In this document: piece after piece, positions 2,224 to 51,431 of the stretch
Position numbering within the stretch: the stretch's first letter is position 1
Layout of the letters: every line of letters starts with the position of its first letter
Source: a virus
Length of the DNA: 64,000 nt
IMG/VR virus record: IMGVR_UViG_3300019776_000550
Span: 1 to 64,000 of that record
Direction: 5' to 3' (one strand)
Notes under the pieces: generated by a model
The model's database searches: none
What the model was told of the DNA's origin: nothing
Seen by the model: only the letters and a program-made list of their open reading frames with translations
Made by a program: the position numbers and the translations under genes

Positions 2224-3799
2224 GATAAACTTTTTCAATTACAAACCTATATCAGCACCTGAAAATCTTGATGCTTATAAATCAGCTATTGATAACGCTG
2301 TTAGTCAATATGATAAGAATGTAGAAGCGGCAGGTGTATTAGAAATAGCATTAAGTAAAATTAAAGCTTTACCTTCTGATGTTGAATATGTTAATGCTGT
2401 AAAACAAAAACTTCAAGATTCATTTAGTAATTTAGCTACTACAGTTCAAGGTAACAAAAGATGGGACTTAGCTAATGATACTCTTAATGAAATGAAGCTA
2501 ACAATTCTTAAAGACCAAAATTTACAAGGTATTCAAGATAGTTATAAGGGTTATCAAGATGAATTAGACCTTGAGCAGAAGTTAATGGCATCGGGTAAAA
2601 CACCTGTTAATTTAAATATAGTTGATTGGAAGAATCATCGCACTATTTCTCCTAATGGGGAATTGAATATTTATCGTAGCAAAGTTCAACCTAAAGCAGA
2701 TTACAATGCTGAAATGTTTGAAATTGCTAAAGTTCTTCAACCCGAAGTTATTGATTCTGCATTACAAGCGAGTGGTACAGAAGGATTCTTAATGTCTGTT
2801 AAAAAAGAACAGTTAACAGATGAAATGATTAATAATAAAATGCCTGAAATGTTTAGAACTTATGTTAATACAGATAGTTATAAACAAGAAAAAGTTCTTA
2901 AATTAAAAGAGTTAAATCAAAGAGGAATTACAGGACAAGAAGCTGAAAAACAAGCTGATTTAGAAATAGCAACTAATTTAAAAACTGTTGCTAAACTTAG
3001 AATGGTTAGTAGAGAGGATAAACAGTTTGTTCAAGACCCTAATTATACAAGAGAACAAAACTTACAAAACGAAATTATCAAAATCAAAGCTAAAGAAGAA
3101 GCAAAAAGAAAAGGTAATTTAGCTTATGAAGATGGTGTATTTCAACGAGGTGAAGGTTTCTCATTAGATGGTACTAACATTGATAGAGTAGTAAATATAA
3201 ACAGCAAGAAAATAGTAGATGGTTTAGCTGGTACTAATCTTGTTCCTGATAAATCTGAAGTTAAATTGCTTGATGGAACCGATTTAGATGATTATGATAT
3301 TGTTAAATTTATACCTAAGGGTCTGGTAACATCTAATGTATCAGGAAATGAAGATTTTGTAGGAGCTTTTGTTGGTGATTTACAAGTTAAAGATAGTAAT
3401 GGTAAAATAAAAACAGTAAGAGCTTATTCTAAAAATAGAAATAAAGATATTAAAGCTAGCTTTAATACATTATCAGCAGTTCACAAAGCTAGTATAAACT
3501 TACCCGAAGGCAGAGGACGAGTAGTAGATGATAGTTCTGGAGTTTTAGGTTCTCCTATATTTAAGATTGAAGTTGTAGGTAGAAAGAATGGAACTTTTGT
3601 AATTAAACCTGTTATATTTAATCCTCAAACAAGAGAAACATACTTACCTTCTAAATCAGATTTAGAATCATTTGGATTAAAACCTCAAATGACTTTAGAA
3701 GAATTAGAAAATAGAAGTCTTAATAAACTTGAACCTTTTGTTGAACAACTAAGTAAAAGTAATAAAAATTTAGTAGACGAATCATGGGAAAGCAACTAA
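2210..3799 (+). CDS. Putative virion cargo/ejection protein
   Basis: 529-aa helical ORF overlapping both neighbours, directly before the RNAP gene. Confidence 0.5.
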   Translation: MLPNKINFFNYKPISAPENLDAYKSAIDNAVSQYDKNVEAAGVLEIALSKIKALPSDVEYVNAVKQKLQDSFSNLATTVQGNKRWDLANDTLNEMKLTILKDQNLQGIQDSYKGYQDELDLEQKLMASGKTPVNLNIVDWKNHRTISPNGELNIYRSKVQPKADYNAEMFEIAKVLQPEVIDSALQASGTEGFLMSVKKEQLTDEMINNKMPEMFRTYVNTDSYKQEKVLKLKELNQRGITGQEAEKQADLEIATNLKTVAKLRMVSREDKQFVQDPNYTREQNLQNEIIKIKAKEEAKRKGNLAYEDGVFQRGEGFSLDGTNIDRVVNINSKKIVDGLAGTNLVPDKSEVKLLDGTDLDDYDIVKFIPKGLVTSNVSGNEDFVGAFVGDLQVKDSNGKIKTVRAYSKNRNKDIKASFNTLSAVHKASINLPEGRGRVVDDSSGVLGSPIFKIEVVGRKNGTFVIKPVIFNPQTRETYLPSKSDLESFGLKPQMTLEELENRSLNKLEPFVEQLSKSNKNLVDESWESN

Positions 3800-6700
3800 G
3801 CAAAGCTGCGCAAGACGCATTATCATATTATCAAAATCAAGAAGTAATTAATGCACCTAATACAGAATTAGATGGTAGTAAATACTTAAAAGGATTTAGC
3901 GAAACTAATCTAAACAGCATTAATGATTACAAAGCTAATAAACAAATTTGGTACGAAGGGTTAACTAACTCACTTGTAAAAAATACAGCTAAGGCTGGTA
4001 TCAGATTTGTTGATGGTTTTGGTGGAGTAGCTACAGCTTTAACGGATATTGTTACTAATAATAGTTTGTCATCTGCTATAGAAGGCGAGGATATGGCAGC
4101 TAAAAGAGAAGGTGTTACAGGAGTTCTTGAAACAATTTATGATAATCCTTTTTCTAAAAATATAACAAGACCTTTAGAAGCTTGGTTAGATGAACAATTA
4201 CCAGTTTATCAAACAGAAGCTCAACAACAATCATATAATCCTCTTAATTTAGGATTTCTTGATAAAGCACTTGATGGAGTGGCTTATATAGCAGGTATGG
4301 CAGGAGGAGCTAAATTTGCTACATTAGGAGCTAAAGGTTTAGGAAAAGCAGCTAAGTTTATTTCTGCTGCTGCTAGAGAAGGCAAAGATTTAAATTATGT
4401 TAAAACTCTTTTTGGTGAAAGTACTTCTTTGCTAGATGATTTAGCAAAAAGTAAAAATTCACCTGTTAAAGAATTAGCTACAAACTTATGGGATGATATG
4501 TTTGGAGCTATGGTTGAATCAGGAGCAGAAGCGGCTGAAACTAAGAAAACTATATTTGAAAATCTTAAAAATAAAGCTTTAGCTGAAAACAAAGGACTTC
4601 CGTTAACAAAAGAACAAGAAGCTGAGTTGGAAAAACAAGCTTCTGTAGGAGGTGCTGCTAACTTTTTAGTTAATATGGTTACTACAGGGATGGCTAATAA
4701 TGTTGTATTTAAGCCATTACTTAAAACCAAATGGTTAGATGATGTAATAGGCAATACTGCTATAAAGAATGAAATGATTAATCCTAATTTCATTGGTAAA
4801 AAAGGTACTGACTACATATTAGATAAAACAGTTAAAAATCAAAAGTTATACGAAAGACTATTTAAAAGTGATGTAACTAAAAATATACTTACAGAAGGTA
4901 CACAAGAAGGTGTTCAGTTTGCAAGTAATGATTATTTTGTAAATCTTTTATCAGAACCTTCTAAAGAATCTGTAGATGAATTAGGAGATTTGTATGCTGC
5001 TGTTACTAGAGGTGGTTTAGAAACCTTTATGAAAACTGCTCAAAATATGGGAAGTGTTGATGCAGTTCACTCAATGCTTATAGGTAGTTTATTAGGAGGA
5101 GGTTCATCAGCTTTGCAAAATATAGCTAACAGAAAAGATATTGATGCTAATACACAAGCTGCAATTGATTATGCTAATAGAAATAGTCTGAACAACAAAG
5201 ATGTTACAGAAGGTATTAAATATTTTGCAAAATCAAAAGAATATGCACAAGTAGCTGACGCTGCTGTTAGAAATGGAGATAGACTTACTTATGAAACTGC
5301 TAAGTATTTAGGATTTGCTAATTATATCAATGCAAGAGTTTCTATGAATAAATTTGACGATGTGGTCAGTGAGCTTAATGAGCTTAAATCTGTCCCATTA
5401 GACAAATTTAAGGAACAATTTGATATGACTTATGAAAAAGGATTTGATGAAAAGAAAAGAAATGAAATGATTGATTATGCTCTTGCTGTAGCTAATCAAA
5501 TCAAAACTAGTCAAACTAAAATTATGTCTAACTTTGGACATAAAATTAATGCACTTGAAGCAAAAAATCCTGATAACAAAAAACTATTACCATTTCTTAC
5601 TTCATTAGATATACTTAGAGAAAACTACACAACTAGAGAAAATGAGCTTATTGATAAGTTTAAAGCTAATGGTGTAGATTATACAGCTTTCCAAAAGAAA
5701 GAAGCTAGTGATGAACAAATTGCAGCTAAACAAGGTAATCTAGCAGAATTACAAAAGCAGCTTACTGATATTCAAGGTAATAAAGATTTAGACCCTAAAG
5801 ATAAATTAGCACAAATTAATGAAATTTCTAATAAAATTGTAAAAGCATCTGATGATTTACAAAGAACTGTAACAGAAGGTACTTATAAAGAATTATTTAG
5901 AAAAGAACTTACTGATGAATATAAGCCACAAGTAGATGATAAAACTCAAAGTTTTATTTATGAAACATATTCAAAAGATTTAAATGATTTTGTTGCTATT
6001 CAAACAGCTAAAGAAAAACTTATTGATTTTTATAGCCGAATTACAAAAGATGAATCTTATGCTGAAAAGGTAGTTAAAAAATTAACAGCTAGAAAAAATG
6101 ATACTGAAATCGCTAAAATGTTTACTGTATCAGGTAACTTAGTTAACAAACCTAAAGTAACTAAGAAAACTAATGATGATGGAAAAGAAGAAGAAATATC
6201 AGAAGACAATTATGTTTTTGAAGAAGGTCAAGCACAAGGGGATTTAGGTAGAGAAGAATATATCAAAACAGGTGACGTTTATCAACTAAACAGAAGTATT
6301 TATGGCTATAACAAAGGTTATAGTCAGGCATCTAATAAAGCTGCTGCAAAAAATAAAGGTGAAACTTATGAAATGTTTGAAGTTGTTGATACTAAAACAA
6401 CAGTTTTACCTGACGGAAGTTTAAAAGGAGAAGTTCAGGTATCTAACAATAAAGGTTACAAAGAATGGATTGATGTAAGAGACTTTAAAAAGATAATCAA
6501 ACCAATGGGACAGTCAGCAACTGCTCCTATTAAAATGAATAATCGTAGTGAAGAGTACAAGTTTTATCAAGAATATAATGATAGAGCTGTAAGATTTACT
6601 AGAGATGGAGTAACTTACATTGGTAAAATTGCATTACCTAGAGTTAGAACTACAAAAGATGGTAAATTAGTTGTAAAAGCAGGTACTTATGATATAATTT

Positions 6701-45939: not shown

Positions 45940-47266
45940 TTAATATACTACATTGTTCAATCTCAATGATTTAAGATTTTGTTTCTTAATCCATTGTGAA
46001 TTATTGAGAACAGATAAAATCTGTTTACGTGCGTCATAATATGACTTAGCATGTACAGATATGACAAATTCATATCTAGTATTTCCAAACTGTTTATCTT
46101 TACTTTCTGTTTCTCTACCTGTATAACTACAAGTATTTACTTTAGAAATTGAAATTTGTTTACCAAATAAATCTACAATACCCGTGTATATCATAATTTA
46201 AAATAATTGTTTTCAATTTCTTTTTCATATTCAACATGTTCAATAGCTTGTTCTATGTTATGAGGACATGTACTTTGTACTCTTTGATTGTTTCTCACAA
46301 TCATTTTAAGAGTATTACGTAGATGATTGATGTCCATAGCATCAATATCTACATATTTTCCATCTTTAGTTCTCCAATATACTTTTTCCATTGTCATAAA
46401 TTTTTTAAAAAGGAAGTGATTTTTCACTTCCTTTTGTTTGATTTACATCAACCACTTATTTGCATTTTGTTGATGGTATTCAACCATCAAGTTAGCTTTT
46501 TGTGGATTCAAATAAATCCACATTTGCTTCGCCGTTTTGTACTCATCGTACACTTTCTTTGCATTTATGCAAGTAAATTCGTACATGTCAATAACATGTA
46601 CAACTTGCTCTACGTTTTCTCCTCCTGCTGCTTTAGGAAGAGTGAAGTAGAATACCATTTCTCCTATACAAGCGGCAATTTGAAAATTGCCCTTGCAGAA
46701 AATCTTTCCTGTTGGAAATACAGCGGTGAAATTTAATTCACCATTTCCAAACGTCTTTGTGATTTTAATTCCGTTAATGTTATTCATGTTCTTCTATGTT
46801 TAGTGATGTTAAAAATGAAACCATACCCACGATACATAAGTTGTATGTGGCAAAAAATAATTTAACATAAGAGACATGAATGTCTATTACATTAAAAAAT
46901 AAATATTCTGCTAATATCAATAACACATATATAAAAAGTGTCATTAATATTATAAAAATTAATCTTGTTATTTTCATTTTTTTTTTGTGATTAAAATAAA
47001 ATATTCCTATTCAGTAAAACTAAATAGGAATATAATCATTTGTCCATCATTTATCTGAAATATACGAAAATGTCGTCGTATATTTCAGATACAACCACTA
47101 CTGCTCCAATAAGAGCAAACATTAGACCGCCACCTATTAAATAGGCGACTGACATTATTACTTCATGGTAATTAATGTCAAATATAAGACTGATAAAGGC
47201 TGCAGGAATTACGAATAGAATAGACCATACAGCTACAAATCCAATAAGACAAATTAATGCTTTCAT
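45940..47266 (-). CDS. Cluster of small early ORFs (45940-46194, 46191-46427, 46443-46787, 46780-46977, 47051-47266)
   Basis: Small co-oriented ORFs; the last two are hydrophobic two-TM proteins. Confidence 0.55.
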
Positions 47267-47298
47267 TTTATTTTTTTTTTTTTTAAGGTTTATGTTCT

Positions 47299-47369
47299 TT
47301 TTTCTTCACTCTGCTTTTTACAAGGACTTGTGACCTTCTATATTAAATATAGGTAGCATTAAAGAAAAA
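47299..47369 (-). ncRNA. Twister ribozyme (type P1, with P3)
   Basis: Minus strand: UUUUUCUU UAA UGCU AC CUAUA-UUUAA-UAUAG AAGG UCACAAGU CCUU GUAAAA AGCA GAGUG AAGAAAAA. P1, P2, P3 and P4 pair; both pseudoknots (CAC/GUG and AC/GU) pair. Confidence 0.9.
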
Positions 47370-47406
47370 GCATCTATTCTCCCAACAGATGCTTTGAATA
47401 GTTGTG

Positions 47407-47547
47407 CTACACTTTTACACAACTAAGAATCAAGGAACTTTCATCCTTAATAATAGAAATAGCTTCCATAACAGAAGAAGCTTCAATTTCCATATTAAGA
47501 ACAATAATTCCTGTTCTCAGACGGTAACTTACTAAATACTTGTTCAT
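47407..47547 (-). CDS. Small early ORF (46 aa, not in track)
   Basis: MNKYLVSYRLRTG...LSCVKV*. Confidence 0.55.
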   Translation of the reverse strand: MNKYLVSYRLRTGIIVLNMEIEASSVMEAISIIKDESSLILSCVKV

Positions 47548-47580
47548 AGTATTAGGTTTAAATGTAAGAAAATAGAATTA

Positions 47581-47751
47581 CTATTGAATTTTAATAATTC
47601 CGTCATAATCTACGGAATATATCAAAAATCTTTTATCTCTTATCTCTCTCCAGATAGAAGCATTTTTCAGAGTTTTTAATCTTTCTAACGCATCTTCTAA
47701 TGATTCAAACCATATATATTCATAGTCTGAATTAAATATAAAGTATTCCAT
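47581..47751 (-). CDS. Small early ORF (56 aa, not in track)
   Basis: MEYFIFNSDYEYIWFESLEDALERL...IIKIQ*. Confidence 0.55.
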   Translation of the reverse strand: MEYFIFNSDYEYIWFESLEDALERLKTLKNASIWREIRDKRFLIYSVDYDGIIKIQ

Positions 47752-47824
47752 AATAAACAATTAAAAATGAATAAAACAGAATTGTGACAGTTTCTAAGAT
47801 AACTGACAAAACTTATTGTTTGCA

Positions 47825-48240
47825 TTACAATATTGTAACACCTGTTAAAACTCTTGAAGTTGTATTATTTACAACTTCATAAAATTCCCAAACCATGTCT
47901 CCATTGTTATAATTAAACATAGAGACATAAATAGAATTAGAATCATAACATTCTAATTCTATAAATTCTTTCCATGCTTTTTCCAAACCATTTTCATGGT
48001 TTGTATGAGTTGGGAAAAATTCAATAAATTTCAATTCTTTCAACATAAATCTTCTATTTTTAAATCTAAAACTGGAAGTTCTTTTACTATTTTGTAATAA
48101 TAACTTTCTGAGTCATCAGTAGGTTGATTATTAACAAAATTCTGAACTTTTTCTAAGTCTTTTTCTTGTATCTTACCTAGTAAGATATTTTCATCACAGT
48201 GTCCTTTACCGTGATAATAATATTTGAATAAATACATCAT
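47825..48240 (-). CDS. Two small early ORFs (47825-48046, 48040-48240)
   Basis: ORF track; poly-A run immediately before the 48240 start. Confidence 0.55.
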
Positions 48241-48544
48241 TTTTTTTTTTTTGATTTAATTACACAGCTTAAAATAAAATAATTACAATTGTATGATTTA
48301 ATGCAAGTAGTTTGATTAACTTCTCGGAACTAACTTTCATAAGAATTTCTTCTTATAACCAGTACATCCTTTGCACATACAATTGTAATTAATTGTTTTT
48401 AAATGTTCGGTTGTGTCTGTTTTGTATATCACAACTTTATCTTACACATCTATTGAGAAACCTCCAATGTCTCAAATGTTTTTCAATGTGTAAACCAGAT
48501 GCTTTACTTCAAACATTTCAAAGCTTCAATGGAGTTTGTAAGCT

Positions 48545-48670
48545 TTGAATAACAATGACCTTTTAACTTACATGATTTTCTCATGTAAAACTTTTATAAA
48601 AGTAGTTTCAAGATTTATTTAGACACGTTTATCTCATCATCAGATTGTTTTCGTGTATATTTTAATTCAA
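48545..48670 (-). ncRNA. Hammerhead ribozyme, type I
   Basis: Minus strand: AACAAU CUGAUGA U GAGAU-loop-AUCUU GAAA C...GUC AUUGUU. Stem I AACAAU/AUUGUU extends via UUGAAU/AUUCAA. Stem-I bulge ACACG is complementary to loop-II CGUGU. Confidence 0.85.
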
Positions 48671-49030
48671 AACTTAATAATAAAACAACAACTCTAGGTG
48701 TACATATCATAGGTAGTGAGCCTATGTACATATTTTTCACAGTTGAGCGTTGTTGCTTTATTATCTACTTCTAATAACATCAGTTGTCTTTTGTTATTAG
48801 ATTCACCTTCTGTTCACTCTAAGCAAGTACGTGTTATTGTATTAACACAATGCGATATGAGCATAAACAGTTTTCATCTCCTTATTTAAGGGAAACTAGG
48901 TTAGTCAAAAAAAAAAGAAGTAGTTTATTCTTTCAGATGTCTTTTAAAAAGACGGAAAGATGGACACAGCTGACATTGTAAGCAGTCCTACTTCTTTTAC
49001 GTAATCCTACCATCATGTCACTAGGTAGGT

Positions 49031-49095
49031 TTCCCACTCAACCTTCTATCATTATGATAGCTAACCCTTGTGAAGTTAGAATGAGGTTTTAAGAA
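49031..49095 (-). ncRNA. Putative variant twister ribozyme (type P1, with P5)
   Basis: Minus strand: UUCU UAA AACC UC AUU CUAAC UUCACAAGG GUUAG CUAUCA-UAA-UGAUAG AA GGUU GAGUG GGAA. L4 has one extra U and P1 is short. Confidence 0.6.
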
Positions 49096-49149
49096 TCGTT
49101 AGTTTTATTCTGTTGCCAAGAAAAACTAACAAAAAACTCCGAATCTTAT

Positions 49150-49500
49150 TCAGTCGCAGAGTTCAGACCTAACACAACCTGAATGTGCAAATGGAAATCC
49201 ATCATACATTCCACCTCCGCAATGACTACAAGTAGTCTCTGCAAAAGTGTCATGGATTTTTTCCATTGCTTCATTGGTTGCTGGTTCAGACATCAACTCT
49301 AGCAATACTTTCCTTAAATCATAAGGATTATGGACTTTGTAAGTATTATGCTCACAATCCATAGCGTATGCAGAGTCAATATTCTCATGCGTTATGTTTA
49401 TACACTTATTATTGTAATAAGCTGATAAGCAATAAACATGAGGTAGTCTGTGACCATTAAAGTCTAAACCAAACTGCTCTACAAGGACTAATTCTGTCAT
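49150..49500 (-). CDS. Small early protein with C-terminal CxxC
   Basis: Likely start MTELVL at 49500; CSHC...H..C motif. Confidence 0.5.
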   Translation of the reverse strand: MTELVLVEQFGLDFNGHRLPHVYCLSAYYNNKCINITHENIDSAYAMDCEHNTYKVHNPYDLRKVLLELMSEPATNEAMEKIHDTFAETTCSHCGGGMYDGFPFAHSGCVRSELCD

Positions 49501-49642
49501 TGTTTTACAATTTAATTTAAAAAGTTTTTCTACTAACATAACTTCTAGTAGATAAAGTGATACTAATTACCTGTTGATTCTCAAGATGTATCAAGTCTTG
49601 ATTCCTTATACTCAGTTAGCAGGTTCTGAGTTTAGGATTGAG

Positions 49643-50008
49643 TTACAGAGTAACCACTTTCTCTCTCAAATTACGAGAGACATGGTTTCTCAATGTCTGC
49701 AAATCTGCCTGTTCTTTACAGACAAACTCTCCATTTGCTTCTCTAACAAGAGTAGCAATAATAGGAAAGTTCCCTGTAAGTCCATGCAGTGCTACTAATA
49801 CCATAGTAGCTAATGCAGACATTCCTGGAACTGCTACCGTAACAACAGTATTACTTTCAACCCCTAAAGATTGAAGATACTTTGTTACAGCTTCCAAATT
49901 TTCCCCAAATGGTTTTTCAGGGTTAATTTGAACAGTTCCATGAAACTCAAATCCTAATTCATCAAGACTCTTGTTAAAGTGTCCTGACAAGTTAAGTTTC
50001 TTGTTCAT
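49643..50008 (-). CDS. Csx15-like (type III CRISPR accessory, CARF-related) protein
   Basis: LNLSGH...PGMSALATMVLVALHGLTGNFPII...F...DLQTLR...R resembles my recollection of the Csx15 consensus (NFSH..PGL..A..LAELHGR.G.FP...NLQ..R). Likely ATG at 50008. Confidence 0.65.
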   Translation of the reverse strand: MNKKLNLSGHFNKSLDELGFEFHGTVQINPEKPFGENLEAVTKYLQSLGVESNTVVTVAVPGMSALATMVLVALHGLTGNFPIIATLVREANGEFVCKEQADLQTLRNHVSRNLREKVVTL

Positions 50009-50196
50009 TTTTAAGGAACGTAGGAAACTAATGTGTTCTATTCTAAGTAAGAACACTTAACTTGCAACCACTAAAGTAGGTTACTTTCACTTTGTAGCAT
50101 ATTTAAAAATCTGGAGGTAATGCTACTTAACCTCACTGTTAGCTTTTTATATAAAAAAGCTAAAAAAACAAAAACAAAAAGAAAAAAAAGCTAGGA

Positions 50197-50427
50197 TTAA
50201 CCTAGCTTGAATTTCTGGATGATAGCGTCTAACACGCTATCAGCAACACCGTAACCATTTGCGTATTCAATAACACTGACTTCTGCATCAGTGAATTTCT
50301 CCGCGATACATATTAACGTTTGCGAAGCTTTTGACAGCTTCTCGTAAATTTCGTCGGTGACTTCCACACCTTTTCTGCCCGATACCTTTCTATCGGTATC
50401 TTTAACATCTAACTTTATCTGAGCCAT
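50197..50427 (-). CDS. First gene of the leftward (early) unit, hypothetical
   Basis: 76-aa ORF with an overlapping terminator-like hairpin at its 3' end. Confidence 0.6.
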   Translation of the reverse strand: MAQIKLDVKDTDRKVSGRKGVEVTDEIYEKLSKASQTLICIAEKFTDAEVSVIEYANGYGVADSVLDAIIQKFKLG

Positions 50428-50888: not shown

Positions 50889-51431
50889 TTGATAAAAATG
50901 AAGATAAAAGAAGTAATAAAAATCAATAAAGTAGCTGTAAAAGTAAGAGATGTAGATATAGGTGTTAATCCTTTCATGAAAGATGTAAATATTAAAGTAT
51001 CTGTAGTAAATTTAGAAGGTGATTATGTTAAAGAGGATGATTTATACTTACCAAATAACACTTATATTGAATCAGAACCTTATACAAAGATTTTTATAAA
51101 TGCTGAAAACAGAAAAATTGTTAATAAATTAACACAACGAGGTAAAGATTTGCTATTATGGTTGCTTTATGAGATGGAAGCTGGTCAAGATTTTATTAAA
51201 ATTAATAAAGTTAGATATATGAAAGAATTAAGTATCAAATCTGTTAATACTTATAAAACAGCTTTATCAGAATTAATAAGATATGGTATGTTAAAGGAGT
51301 CAAAAGCAAAAGATATATACTGGATTAATTCACAATTCTTTTTTAATGGTAATAGAATCAAGAAATATAAAAAACAACTGATAAATAAAGATGGCAATAG
51401 AATTAATAATAAAGAGAAAGGCGTTTCCTGA
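50889..51431 (+). CDS. RepL-like replication/regulatory protein (winged-helix)
   Basis: S.NT...ALSELI..G......YWIN..FFFNGNRI motif. Confidence 0.72.
   Translation: MIKMKIKEVIKINKVAVKVRDVDIGVNPFMKDVNIKVSVVNLEGDYVKEDDLYLPNNTYIESEPYTKIFINAENRKIVNKLTQRGKDLLLWLLYEMEAGQDFIKINKVRYMKELSIKSVNTYKTALSELIRYGMLKESKAKDIYWINSQFFFNGNRIKKYKKQLINKDGNRINNKEKGVS

Follow-up and report, generated by a model that had tools for sequence, protein, structure and literature searches.

Twister- and hammerhead-type ribozyme folds clustered on one strand of a crAss-like phage genome, with a possible link to RAGATH-34 RNA

Multiple hammerhead ribozymes flanking genes have been described in prophages (Perreault et al. 2011, PMC3088659). 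Ribozymes lying near one another and near phage genes have been proposed to process polycistronic RNA into parts with different stabilities, the role that self-cleaving ribozymes have in phages and bacteria being described in the same work as still unknown (PMC6765202). The locus analyzed here is of an already known kind, a ribozyme cluster around small phage genes (PMC3088659). It lies in the viral record IMGVR_UViG_3300019776_000550, a complete virus genome of 91,498 bp with direct terminal repeats, the first 64 kb of which form the stretch under study (the window). Three ribozyme folds of two classes, namely a variant twister (T-a), a type I hammerhead-type fold and a second twister (T-c), fall within 1.8 kb of its minus strand, or 2% of the genome. 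The virus is regarded as a crAss-like phage on the strength of its major capsid protein, a match to the Crassvirus capsid family PF23898 (E 6e-51); the DNA runs containing the stretch are metagenomes of freshwater, aquatic and drinking-water origin from several studies.

Like the published prophage and phage clusters, this locus holds several ribozymes close together on one strand among small genes of unknown function, with the structurally unrelated twister and hammerhead in equivalent positions. Unlike them, it belongs to an uncultured freshwater Crassvirales phage, two of its three ribozyme forms are missed by the Rfam models, and one of the intervals between ribozymes is a 534-nt non-coding RNA instead of a gene. 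A literature search found no paper on ribozymes in crAss-like phages, and blastn of positions 46800-50300 against 50,697 GenBank phage records gave no match. The ribozymes are located close to the beginning of a long block of minus-strand genes: from 50427 down to 23762 every gene has this orientation, including every open reading frame (ORF) of at least 100 aa between 23762 and 50056; a divergent gene pair lies near 50.4-50.9 kb, and the first plus-strand gene starts at 50889.

We consider it fairly probable that three self-cleaving ribozymes follow one another in a minus-strand operon here and would split the transcript into four pieces, a division that the geometry of the sites fits. In order, they would be a twister of the P5 type, a type I hammerhead whose 5' tail forms a pseudoknot with loop II and which has one additional U after A9, and a P1 twister close to the canonical form. 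An earlier interpretation made from the letters alone (the sequence-only reading) had proposed an array of this composition. Its three co-oriented minus-strand folds of two classes were recovered by the RF03160 match, the descriptor and the family alignments, its predicted cuts at 49091/49090, 48557/48556 and 47361/47360 fit these folds, and the intervening fragments of 534 nt and 1196 nt have the sizes and ORF content that it described. It had also named the Rfam twister and hammerhead models as a check, and these gave a divided answer: T-c was found by the twister-P1 model, and T-a and the hammerhead went unmatched. With three ribozymes of two classes, a non-coding RNA, four tiny genes and hairpins before two of the cuts, the locus is a compact test case (Table 1).

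The Rfam scans by E-value covered all 4227 models on segments of 3.5 kb, 681 nt and 131 nt at E<=10. They returned a single twister match, the remainder being noise (snoRNA, miRNA, CrcZ and ssnA), and a scan of the whole window at the gathering thresholds reported nothing. A plus-strand match to RAGATH-27, with 17.9 bits against a cut-off of 76.1, was discarded as noise. Genome-wide, no further twister- or hammerhead-type sites were detected with RF03160 (E<=1), with the covariance model R1 introduced below (E<=1) or with the hammerhead descriptor. A twister descriptor proved unspecific, with about 16 matches per shuffled genome, and was excluded from the evidence; the hammerhead descriptor yields 0.17 matches per shuffled genome. 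As two of the three ribozymes at this locus escape annotation by standard covariance models, the counts of ribozymes in phages are probably too low.

The two twisters

The twisters of this locus resemble the type P1 twister (RF03160; Roth et al. 2014; 4OJI and 4RGE as reviewed in PMC6154101) in the arrangement of P1, P2 and P4, a U-A scissile site within a UAA loop, an AAG element in L4, and, in T-c and putatively in T-a, the two pseudoknots T1 (L4-L1) and T2 (L4-L2). T-c, which carries P3, aligns with RF03160 from position 1 to 68 of 68 with 58.9 bits and an E-value of 5.7e-12. In this alignment P1 is formed by UCUU/AAGA, P2 by UGCU/AGCA and P4 by AAG/CUU, L4 reads GUCACAAGUC, the UAA, AAG and UAAA elements are all kept, and the predicted scissile step U-1/A+1 corresponds to U47361/A47360. 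Differences from the consensus are found in the pseudoknots, where the L4 triplet and its partner in T1 are CAC/GUG in place of CCC/GGG, and T2 is AC/GU in place of GC/GC. These departures involve four positions and amount to two compensating changes. A homologue in a relative (L002) has an identical core, with different P1 and P3 stems.

T-a departs further from the known type, with P5 for P3, a 9-nt L4, AA alone before the 3' strand of P2, and UC/GG as its putative T2. Its P1 (49097-49092 / 49034-49029, UUCU/GGAA) is followed by U^AA, placing the predicted cut between U49091 and A49090. P2 (49088-49085 / 49043-49040, AACC/GGUU) and P4 (49079-49075 / 49065-49061, with the loop UUCACAAGG) come next, and then a hairpin at the position of the optional P5 (49060-49046), AA, the 3' strand of P2, GAGUG (49039-49035) and the 3' strand of P1. 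In T1, CAC of the loop would pair with GUG. P5, an optional stem, has been recorded in about 1% of known twisters, and P3 in 78% (PMC6154101); the rarity of the former and the usual presence of the latter explain why the Rfam twister model misses T-a.

Pattern scans of IMG/VR retrieved four further copies of T-a, five with that of the window, and their alignment has 96.5% of its cells paired and 10 pairs changed on both sides. A relaxed pattern in which the T1 triplets were freed gave only chance matches beyond the same five loci. From P1, P2, P4 and P5 alone, with the pseudoknots left out, the covariance model R1 was built, and its search yielded a sixth, diverged copy in phage G003 with 52.7 bits. 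Across the six copies 97% of the cells are paired (29-49% when the partner is slid), and 14 of the 23 pairs are compensatory, a level reached by none of 500 shuffles; by helix, these comprise 5 of 6 pairs in P1, 1 of 4 in P2, 4 of 5 in P4, 2 of 3 in P5 and 2 of 3 in T1. In the G003 copy, T1 changes from CAC/GUG to CCA/UGG with pairing kept, one P2 pair changes from C-G to U-A, and a U.G of T2 becomes C-G. Since T1 is absent from model R1, its covariation is support independent of the search.

In a phage that bears RAGATH-34, a weak R1 match of 19.5 bits was also observed (G005:C1:127713-127778 (-), L206 1501-1566), with the loop UUCACAA and a 3' GAGUGGG; P2 is not evident, and the site may represent another diverged element of twister-like form. 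A twister-P1 match of 40.3 bits at L002 7805-7891 (+) combines P3 with a P5-like hairpin (GCUAA-UAU-UUAGC) before the AAA junction. Because this twister also has such a hairpin, P5 seems common in this phage group.

The hammerhead-type fold and RAGATH-34

Between the two twisters, the descriptor finds exactly one hammerhead-type site, whose H17 is at 48557, in the whole genome of 91.5 kb, a uniqueness that is weak evidence when taken alone. The fold begins with a 5' tail, ACACG (48656-48652), that pairs with CGUGU of loop II (48627-48623). An open stem I (48649-48644 / 48556-48551, AACAAU/AUUGUU) leads into CUGAUGA (48643-48637), the extra U (48636), stem II (48635-48631 / 48614-48610, GAGAU/AUCUU) and GAAA (48609-48606). 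After C15.2 comes a branched stem III of 45 nt (48605-48559) with a conserved inner hairpin whose loop is GAGAAAAUC, then G16.2, U16.1 and C17; cleavage is predicted after C48557 (H17), at a GUC site.

Like type I hammerheads (PMC3088659), the fold has the full 11-nt core with A15.1-U16.1, the GUC site, an open stem I and a Watson-Crick pseudoknot between stems I and II, a kind of contact that is common in all hammerhead types (PMC3088659). Like the CChMVd(+) hammerhead, it has one extra nucleotide between A9 and G10.1 (PMC3705267); a viroid hammerhead found in nature tolerates an additional nucleotide at that place, and cleavage was 3-4 fold faster when it was a U (PMC3705267, citing De la Pena and Flores 2001). 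It differs from known type I hammerheads in having G.U, not G-C, at 10.1/11.1 and a 45-nt branched stem III, and its relatives carry inserts of 2-96 nt at A9/10.1.

A pattern of 32 nt derived from stem II and GAAAC retrieved 31 IMG/VR loci. In 23 of the 26 distinct family sequences (that of the window included), a downstream G-U-H is followed by the complement of the bases that precede CUGANGA. Among the 23 distinct members with this 3' end the core is invariant, with CUGAUGA (once CUGAGGA), GAAA, A15.1-U16.1 and C15.2-G16.2 present in all; H17 is C in 18 and U in 5 and never G, and N7 is U, once G. Stem I occurs in the forms AACAAU/AUUGUU, ACUGAC/GUCAGU, UUGAC/GUCAA, AACCU/AGGUU and AUGGU/ACCAU, and the pseudoknot between tail and loop II as ACACG/CGUGU, AGUGG/CCACU and ACUGG/CCAGU. 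The insert between A9 and stem II measures 1-96 nt and always ends in U. In an alignment of 14 sequences 94.4% of the cells are paired (28-39% in slid controls) and 17 of 28 pairs are compensatory, again reached by 0 of 500 shuffles. The compensatory pairs include 2 of 5 in stem II, 2 of 4 in stem III, 3 of 5 in the tail/loop-II pseudoknot, and 5 of 6 in stem I, where the count is partly built in, as the 3' end of the family was chosen by its pairing with stem I; this does not apply to the other helices, nor to the constant placement beside a conserved motif. On this comparative evidence, which is the decisive one, we regard the site as a real hammerhead-type fold with likely activity.

An alternative register, in which the UGA beside stem II serves as U7-G8-A9, was rejected: it leaves two unpaired U before G12, and leaves unexplained the conservation of GA in CUGAGGA, where N7 changes. 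The 16-mer AACAATCTGATGATGA, tried as a probe, matched at least 119 IMG/VR stretches, mostly apparently unrelated and partly coding, and is not useful alone.

That all three resemblances arose by chance in AT-rich non-coding DNA, as the background rates of the loose descriptors given above might suggest, is so improbable as to be negligible, given the covariance-model E-value of T-c, the conservation of T-a and the hammerhead in other phages with compensatory changes, and the covariation that no shuffle reached.

The family also leads to a known RNA of another name. Two large members, L140 and L154, match the Rfam family RF03103 (RAGATH-34) with 76.7 and 77.9 bits, above the threshold of 60.7. 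Full elements of about 230-300 nt, which end in G-U-H plus the complement of the bases preceding CUGAUGA and so form a hammerhead-type junction with a hairpin inserted after A9, are found at L140:6141-6387 (-), L154:4467-4714 (+) and about 20 more IMG/VR loci (L141-L167). The RF03103 model spans the pairing of the 5' tail, the CUGAaGA that it draws as a hairpin loop, the inserted hairpin, the stem II block and GAAACC, and ends about 10 nt past GAAAC; the remainder of the element (stem III, the GUH site, the stem I 3' strand), 45-181 nt further on, is not covered. RAGATH-34 and the large relatives of the window hammerhead both show the pairing of the 5' tail and the block UGACUU-AAAC-(pseudoknot)-UAUAAAUAA-AAGUUGAAAC. 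The window copy, which unlike RAGATH-34 has neither the 5' hairpin nor the insert hairpin, gave no report for RF03103 at its site at E<=10, and other short forms score 22-26 bits; its link to RAGATH-34 is made by the common 32-nt block and the structure.

A tentative interpretation, possible at present and not yet the favored one, is that RAGATH-34 represents the 5' part of an expanded type I hammerhead, the core of which would accept a hairpin of up to 96 nt between A9 and stem II, with the window copy as its minimal 106-nt form; together with the upstream twister, this hammerhead would release a phage RNA of 534 nt, which the folded ribozymes retained at its two ends would protect. If so, an orphan RNA family would gain a function, and the hammerhead core would be seen to accept large insertions at A9/10.1. 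The motif was found near genes associated with twister and hammerhead ribozymes, and the Rfam entry lists RAGATH-34 as an sRNA of unknown function; no paper naming it turned up in the literature searched. The large phages bearing RAGATH-34 (149-187 kb) also encode tmRNA, with 73-81 bits, at L140 7615-8152 (-), L166 242-800 (+) and L167 2544-3138 (+), and long tRNA arrays lie near the element in L140 and L154.

Several points weigh against self-cleavage at all three sites, which we infer from conserved cores and covariation. For the twisters, T-c scores below the RF03160 gathering score of 67.2, a shortfall that arises because the model counts the paired pseudoknot changes as four mismatches and gives no credit for pairing. 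T-a matches no twister-clan model at E<=10 in the 3.5-kb and 681-nt scans, and its copies gave no RF03160 match at E<=10 in per-genome searches of four relatives. Its covariation comes from six sequences, with one diverged copy providing that of T1; it has only AA after P5 where the usual junction is UAAA, and its T2 (UC/GG) would be weak, the one change of U.G to C-G being its sole support. For the hammerhead, no Rfam model (RF00163, RF00008, RF02276, RF03152 and others) reports the site at E<=10 in the 3.5-kb, 681-nt or 131-nt scans, and per-genome searches with the Rfam hammerhead models likewise gave no match at E<=10. The G.U at 10.1/11.1 is invariant, and the extra U and the branched stem III are further departures. 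One member of the family, in the related phage G001 (L002 8507-8790 (+), = L003, L139), keeps the 5' core and the inner hairpin and is devoid of the UUAAAAGGUC-AUUGUU end; this copy has probably lost its cleavage site, so that some members are probably dead. In addition, terminator-like hairpins stand just 5' of two of the ribozymes, and with efficient termination little transcript would reach them.

Those features of the hammerhead, together with the inserts of up to 96 nt after A9 in relatives and the curation of RAGATH-34 as an sRNA with CUGAUGA drawn as a hairpin loop, would also be expected if the twisters alone cut and the hammerhead-like RNA, with the RAGATH-34 family, were a structured RNA with another role, such as protein binding or a stability or termination element. 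We judge this unlikely, because all the nucleotides that define a hammerhead core are invariant and all flanking helices covary, H17 is never G while N7 varies as the hammerhead rule permits, the single extra U is compatible with fast cleavage (PMC3705267), and the RAGATH-34 family itself came to light by being associated with genes that occur alongside twister and hammerhead ribozymes.

Predicted transcript pieces and exchangeable modules

Briefly, each ribozyme would fold during transcription and cut itself by internal transesterification, leaving a 2',3'-cyclic phosphate and a 5'-OH, as is established for both classes (PMC8782182). Piece (i) would carry the Csx15-like and 129-aa genes; piece (ii) would be the 534-nt non-coding RNA, and piece (iii) a 1196-nt RNA with the 121-nt structured element and four small ORFs, ending 6 nt past a strong 12-bp hairpin. 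Piece (iv) would be the downstream mRNA, starting with the T-c twister body ahead of an A-rich leader. The twister bodies would remain on the downstream pieces and the hammerhead body on the upstream one. The cut of a twister lies close to its 5' end and that of a type I hammerhead close to its 3' end, so piece (ii) would carry a folded ribozyme body on either side. The likely effect is that each module would acquire defined, structured, nuclease-resistant ends, uncoupling its fate from that of its neighbors.

The sequence-only reading had called the transcript early, a label that is based on gene orientation alone and goes beyond the evidence. Its idea of a protein-independent processing system setting stability or stoichiometry is a standing published hypothesis and not a new one (PMC6765202). 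Its further suggestion, that an RtcB-type ligase circularizes the doubly cut pieces, found no support, as neither an RtcB nor an Rnl-type RNA ligase gene was found in the phage genome. The end chemistry of both classes would suit RtcB (PMC8782182), and RtcB is present in a Bacteroides control genome, so that a host enzyme might join the 534-nt or the 1196-nt piece into circular phage RNAs; we regard this as highly unlikely, also because piece (ii) holds two terminator-like stems, which would usually end transcripts before the hammerhead.

Table 1. Ribozymes, structured elements and ORFs of the locus, in minus-strand order
Feature	Positions	Strand	Basis
Csx15-like ORF, 137 aa	49643-50056	-	PDB 9tet_A 'CRISPR-associated Csx15', E 2e-5
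ORF, 129 aa	49150-49539	-	ORF list
Twister variant T-a, type P1, P5 present, no P3	49029-49097	-	six homologous copies
Structured non-coding module between T-a and hammerhead, 365 nt	48668-49032	-	fold z -5.4 vs shuffles
Type I hammerhead-type ribozyme, minimal 106-nt form	48551-48656	-	descriptor and family alignment
Structured element, 121 nt, closing 16-bp stem	48273-48393	-	fold z -5.3
Four small ORFs (66, 73, 59, 46 aa), A-rich leader each; coding content of 1196-nt piece	47407-48240	-	ORF list
Terminator-like hairpin, 12-bp stem	47367-47395	-	terminator scan
Twister T-c, type P1 with P3	47303-47365	-	RF03160 twister-P1 match

Piece (ii), from 49090 to 48557, has no minus-strand ORF of 60 aa or more. 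Its central 365 nt are the structured module, which contains a hairpin plus two long, terminator-like stems that lead into U-runs, with ends near 48905 and 48680. Contigs of a relative about 92-95% identical, from two metatranscriptome runs of one study, cover exactly positions 48668-49032, the interval from one ribozyme to the other, and have unlike sequence on both sides. The module is thus a separate conserved one, the contig cover being no proof of transcription: the RNA-library data cover small shares of the stretch and consist of contigs, from which RNA ends, strand, level and back-splice junctions are unreadable, and in which uncovered intervals are uninformative. It is the only ribozyme-free non-coding module in the RNA-run contigs, the other covered piece being 34 bases at an A-run (47268-47301).

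In piece (iii), the 121-nt element matches no Rfam family and is 99% identical to a copy in G001 (L002 6024-6144) that has unrelated flanks and precedes a tRNA gene. Searches of Pfam and PHROGs with the small ORFs and with the proteins of 129 and 137 aa gave no match. DNA 75% identical to that of the 59-aa ORF occurs at L002 4201-4372, directly upstream of the T-a copy there. The 12-bp hairpin (47395-47367) abuts T-c, its U-tail being the 5' strand of P1, and the T-c body is followed by an A13 run and a 71-aa membrane-type ORF that starts at 47266. Runs of at least 13 A stand directly before start codons at 48241-48257 and 47267-47290 (-), and no Shine-Dalgarno motif was seen; A-rich leaders fit Bacteroidota-type translation starts.

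Comparison with relatives reveals a mosaic of exchangeable modules, varying by whole modules. Contigs of DNA run X5, which stem from relatives, join across 48394-48675 (the 282-nt hammerhead module), 48048-48246 and 47035-47265, from which it follows that relatives exist that are devoid of the hammerhead module or of single small ORFs; in a contig of run X18, the 121-nt element is joined directly to 47846. The synteny looked for by the sequence-only reading was found in part, in that ribozyme arrays recur in G001 and G003, and not in the positions of the ribozymes relative to genes, which are not fixed. G001 has an array on one strand within 4.5 kb, comprising T-a, a P3+P5 twister, a RAGATH-34-like RNA and a type III hammerhead-like site. 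T-a follows the 129-aa gene in the window and lies directly upstream of the Csx15-like gene in G001, and apparently also before that gene in G003, as judged there from the downstream flank in common. G003 carries two T-a-type twisters on one strand 1.8 kb apart (L207:1501-1567, 5058-5124; L202:1501-1568, 3268-3335), which bracket a 1.7-kb block of three genes, two forward ORFs and one reverse.

Such mosaicism would also arise if the ribozymes belonged to exchangeable cassettes and not to a phage programme, in which mobile small modules bring or abut a ribozyme as insulation and the array is a by-product of mosaic assembly. The differing placement of T-a in the window and G001, the near-identical 121-nt element between otherwise unrelated flanks, the contig joining 48393 to 48676 and the other joints that remove single small ORFs all speak for it, as does a UGACU repeat that flanks the stem-II-side inserts in relatives. 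As the full account of the array it is somewhat unlikely: no mobility gene, end repeats or target-site rule was identified for the modules, and joints in metagenome contigs can stem from other organisms. It is moreover compatible with the operon reading, the mechanism still being cleavage.

The type III hammerhead-like site of G001, at L002 8848-8915 (+), consists of UUUCUGUC^, a stem I hairpin, CUGAUGA with an extra U after A9 as in the window, stem II (GCUU/AAGC) and GAAAC-AGAAA; it is matched by the descriptor and by no Rfam model.

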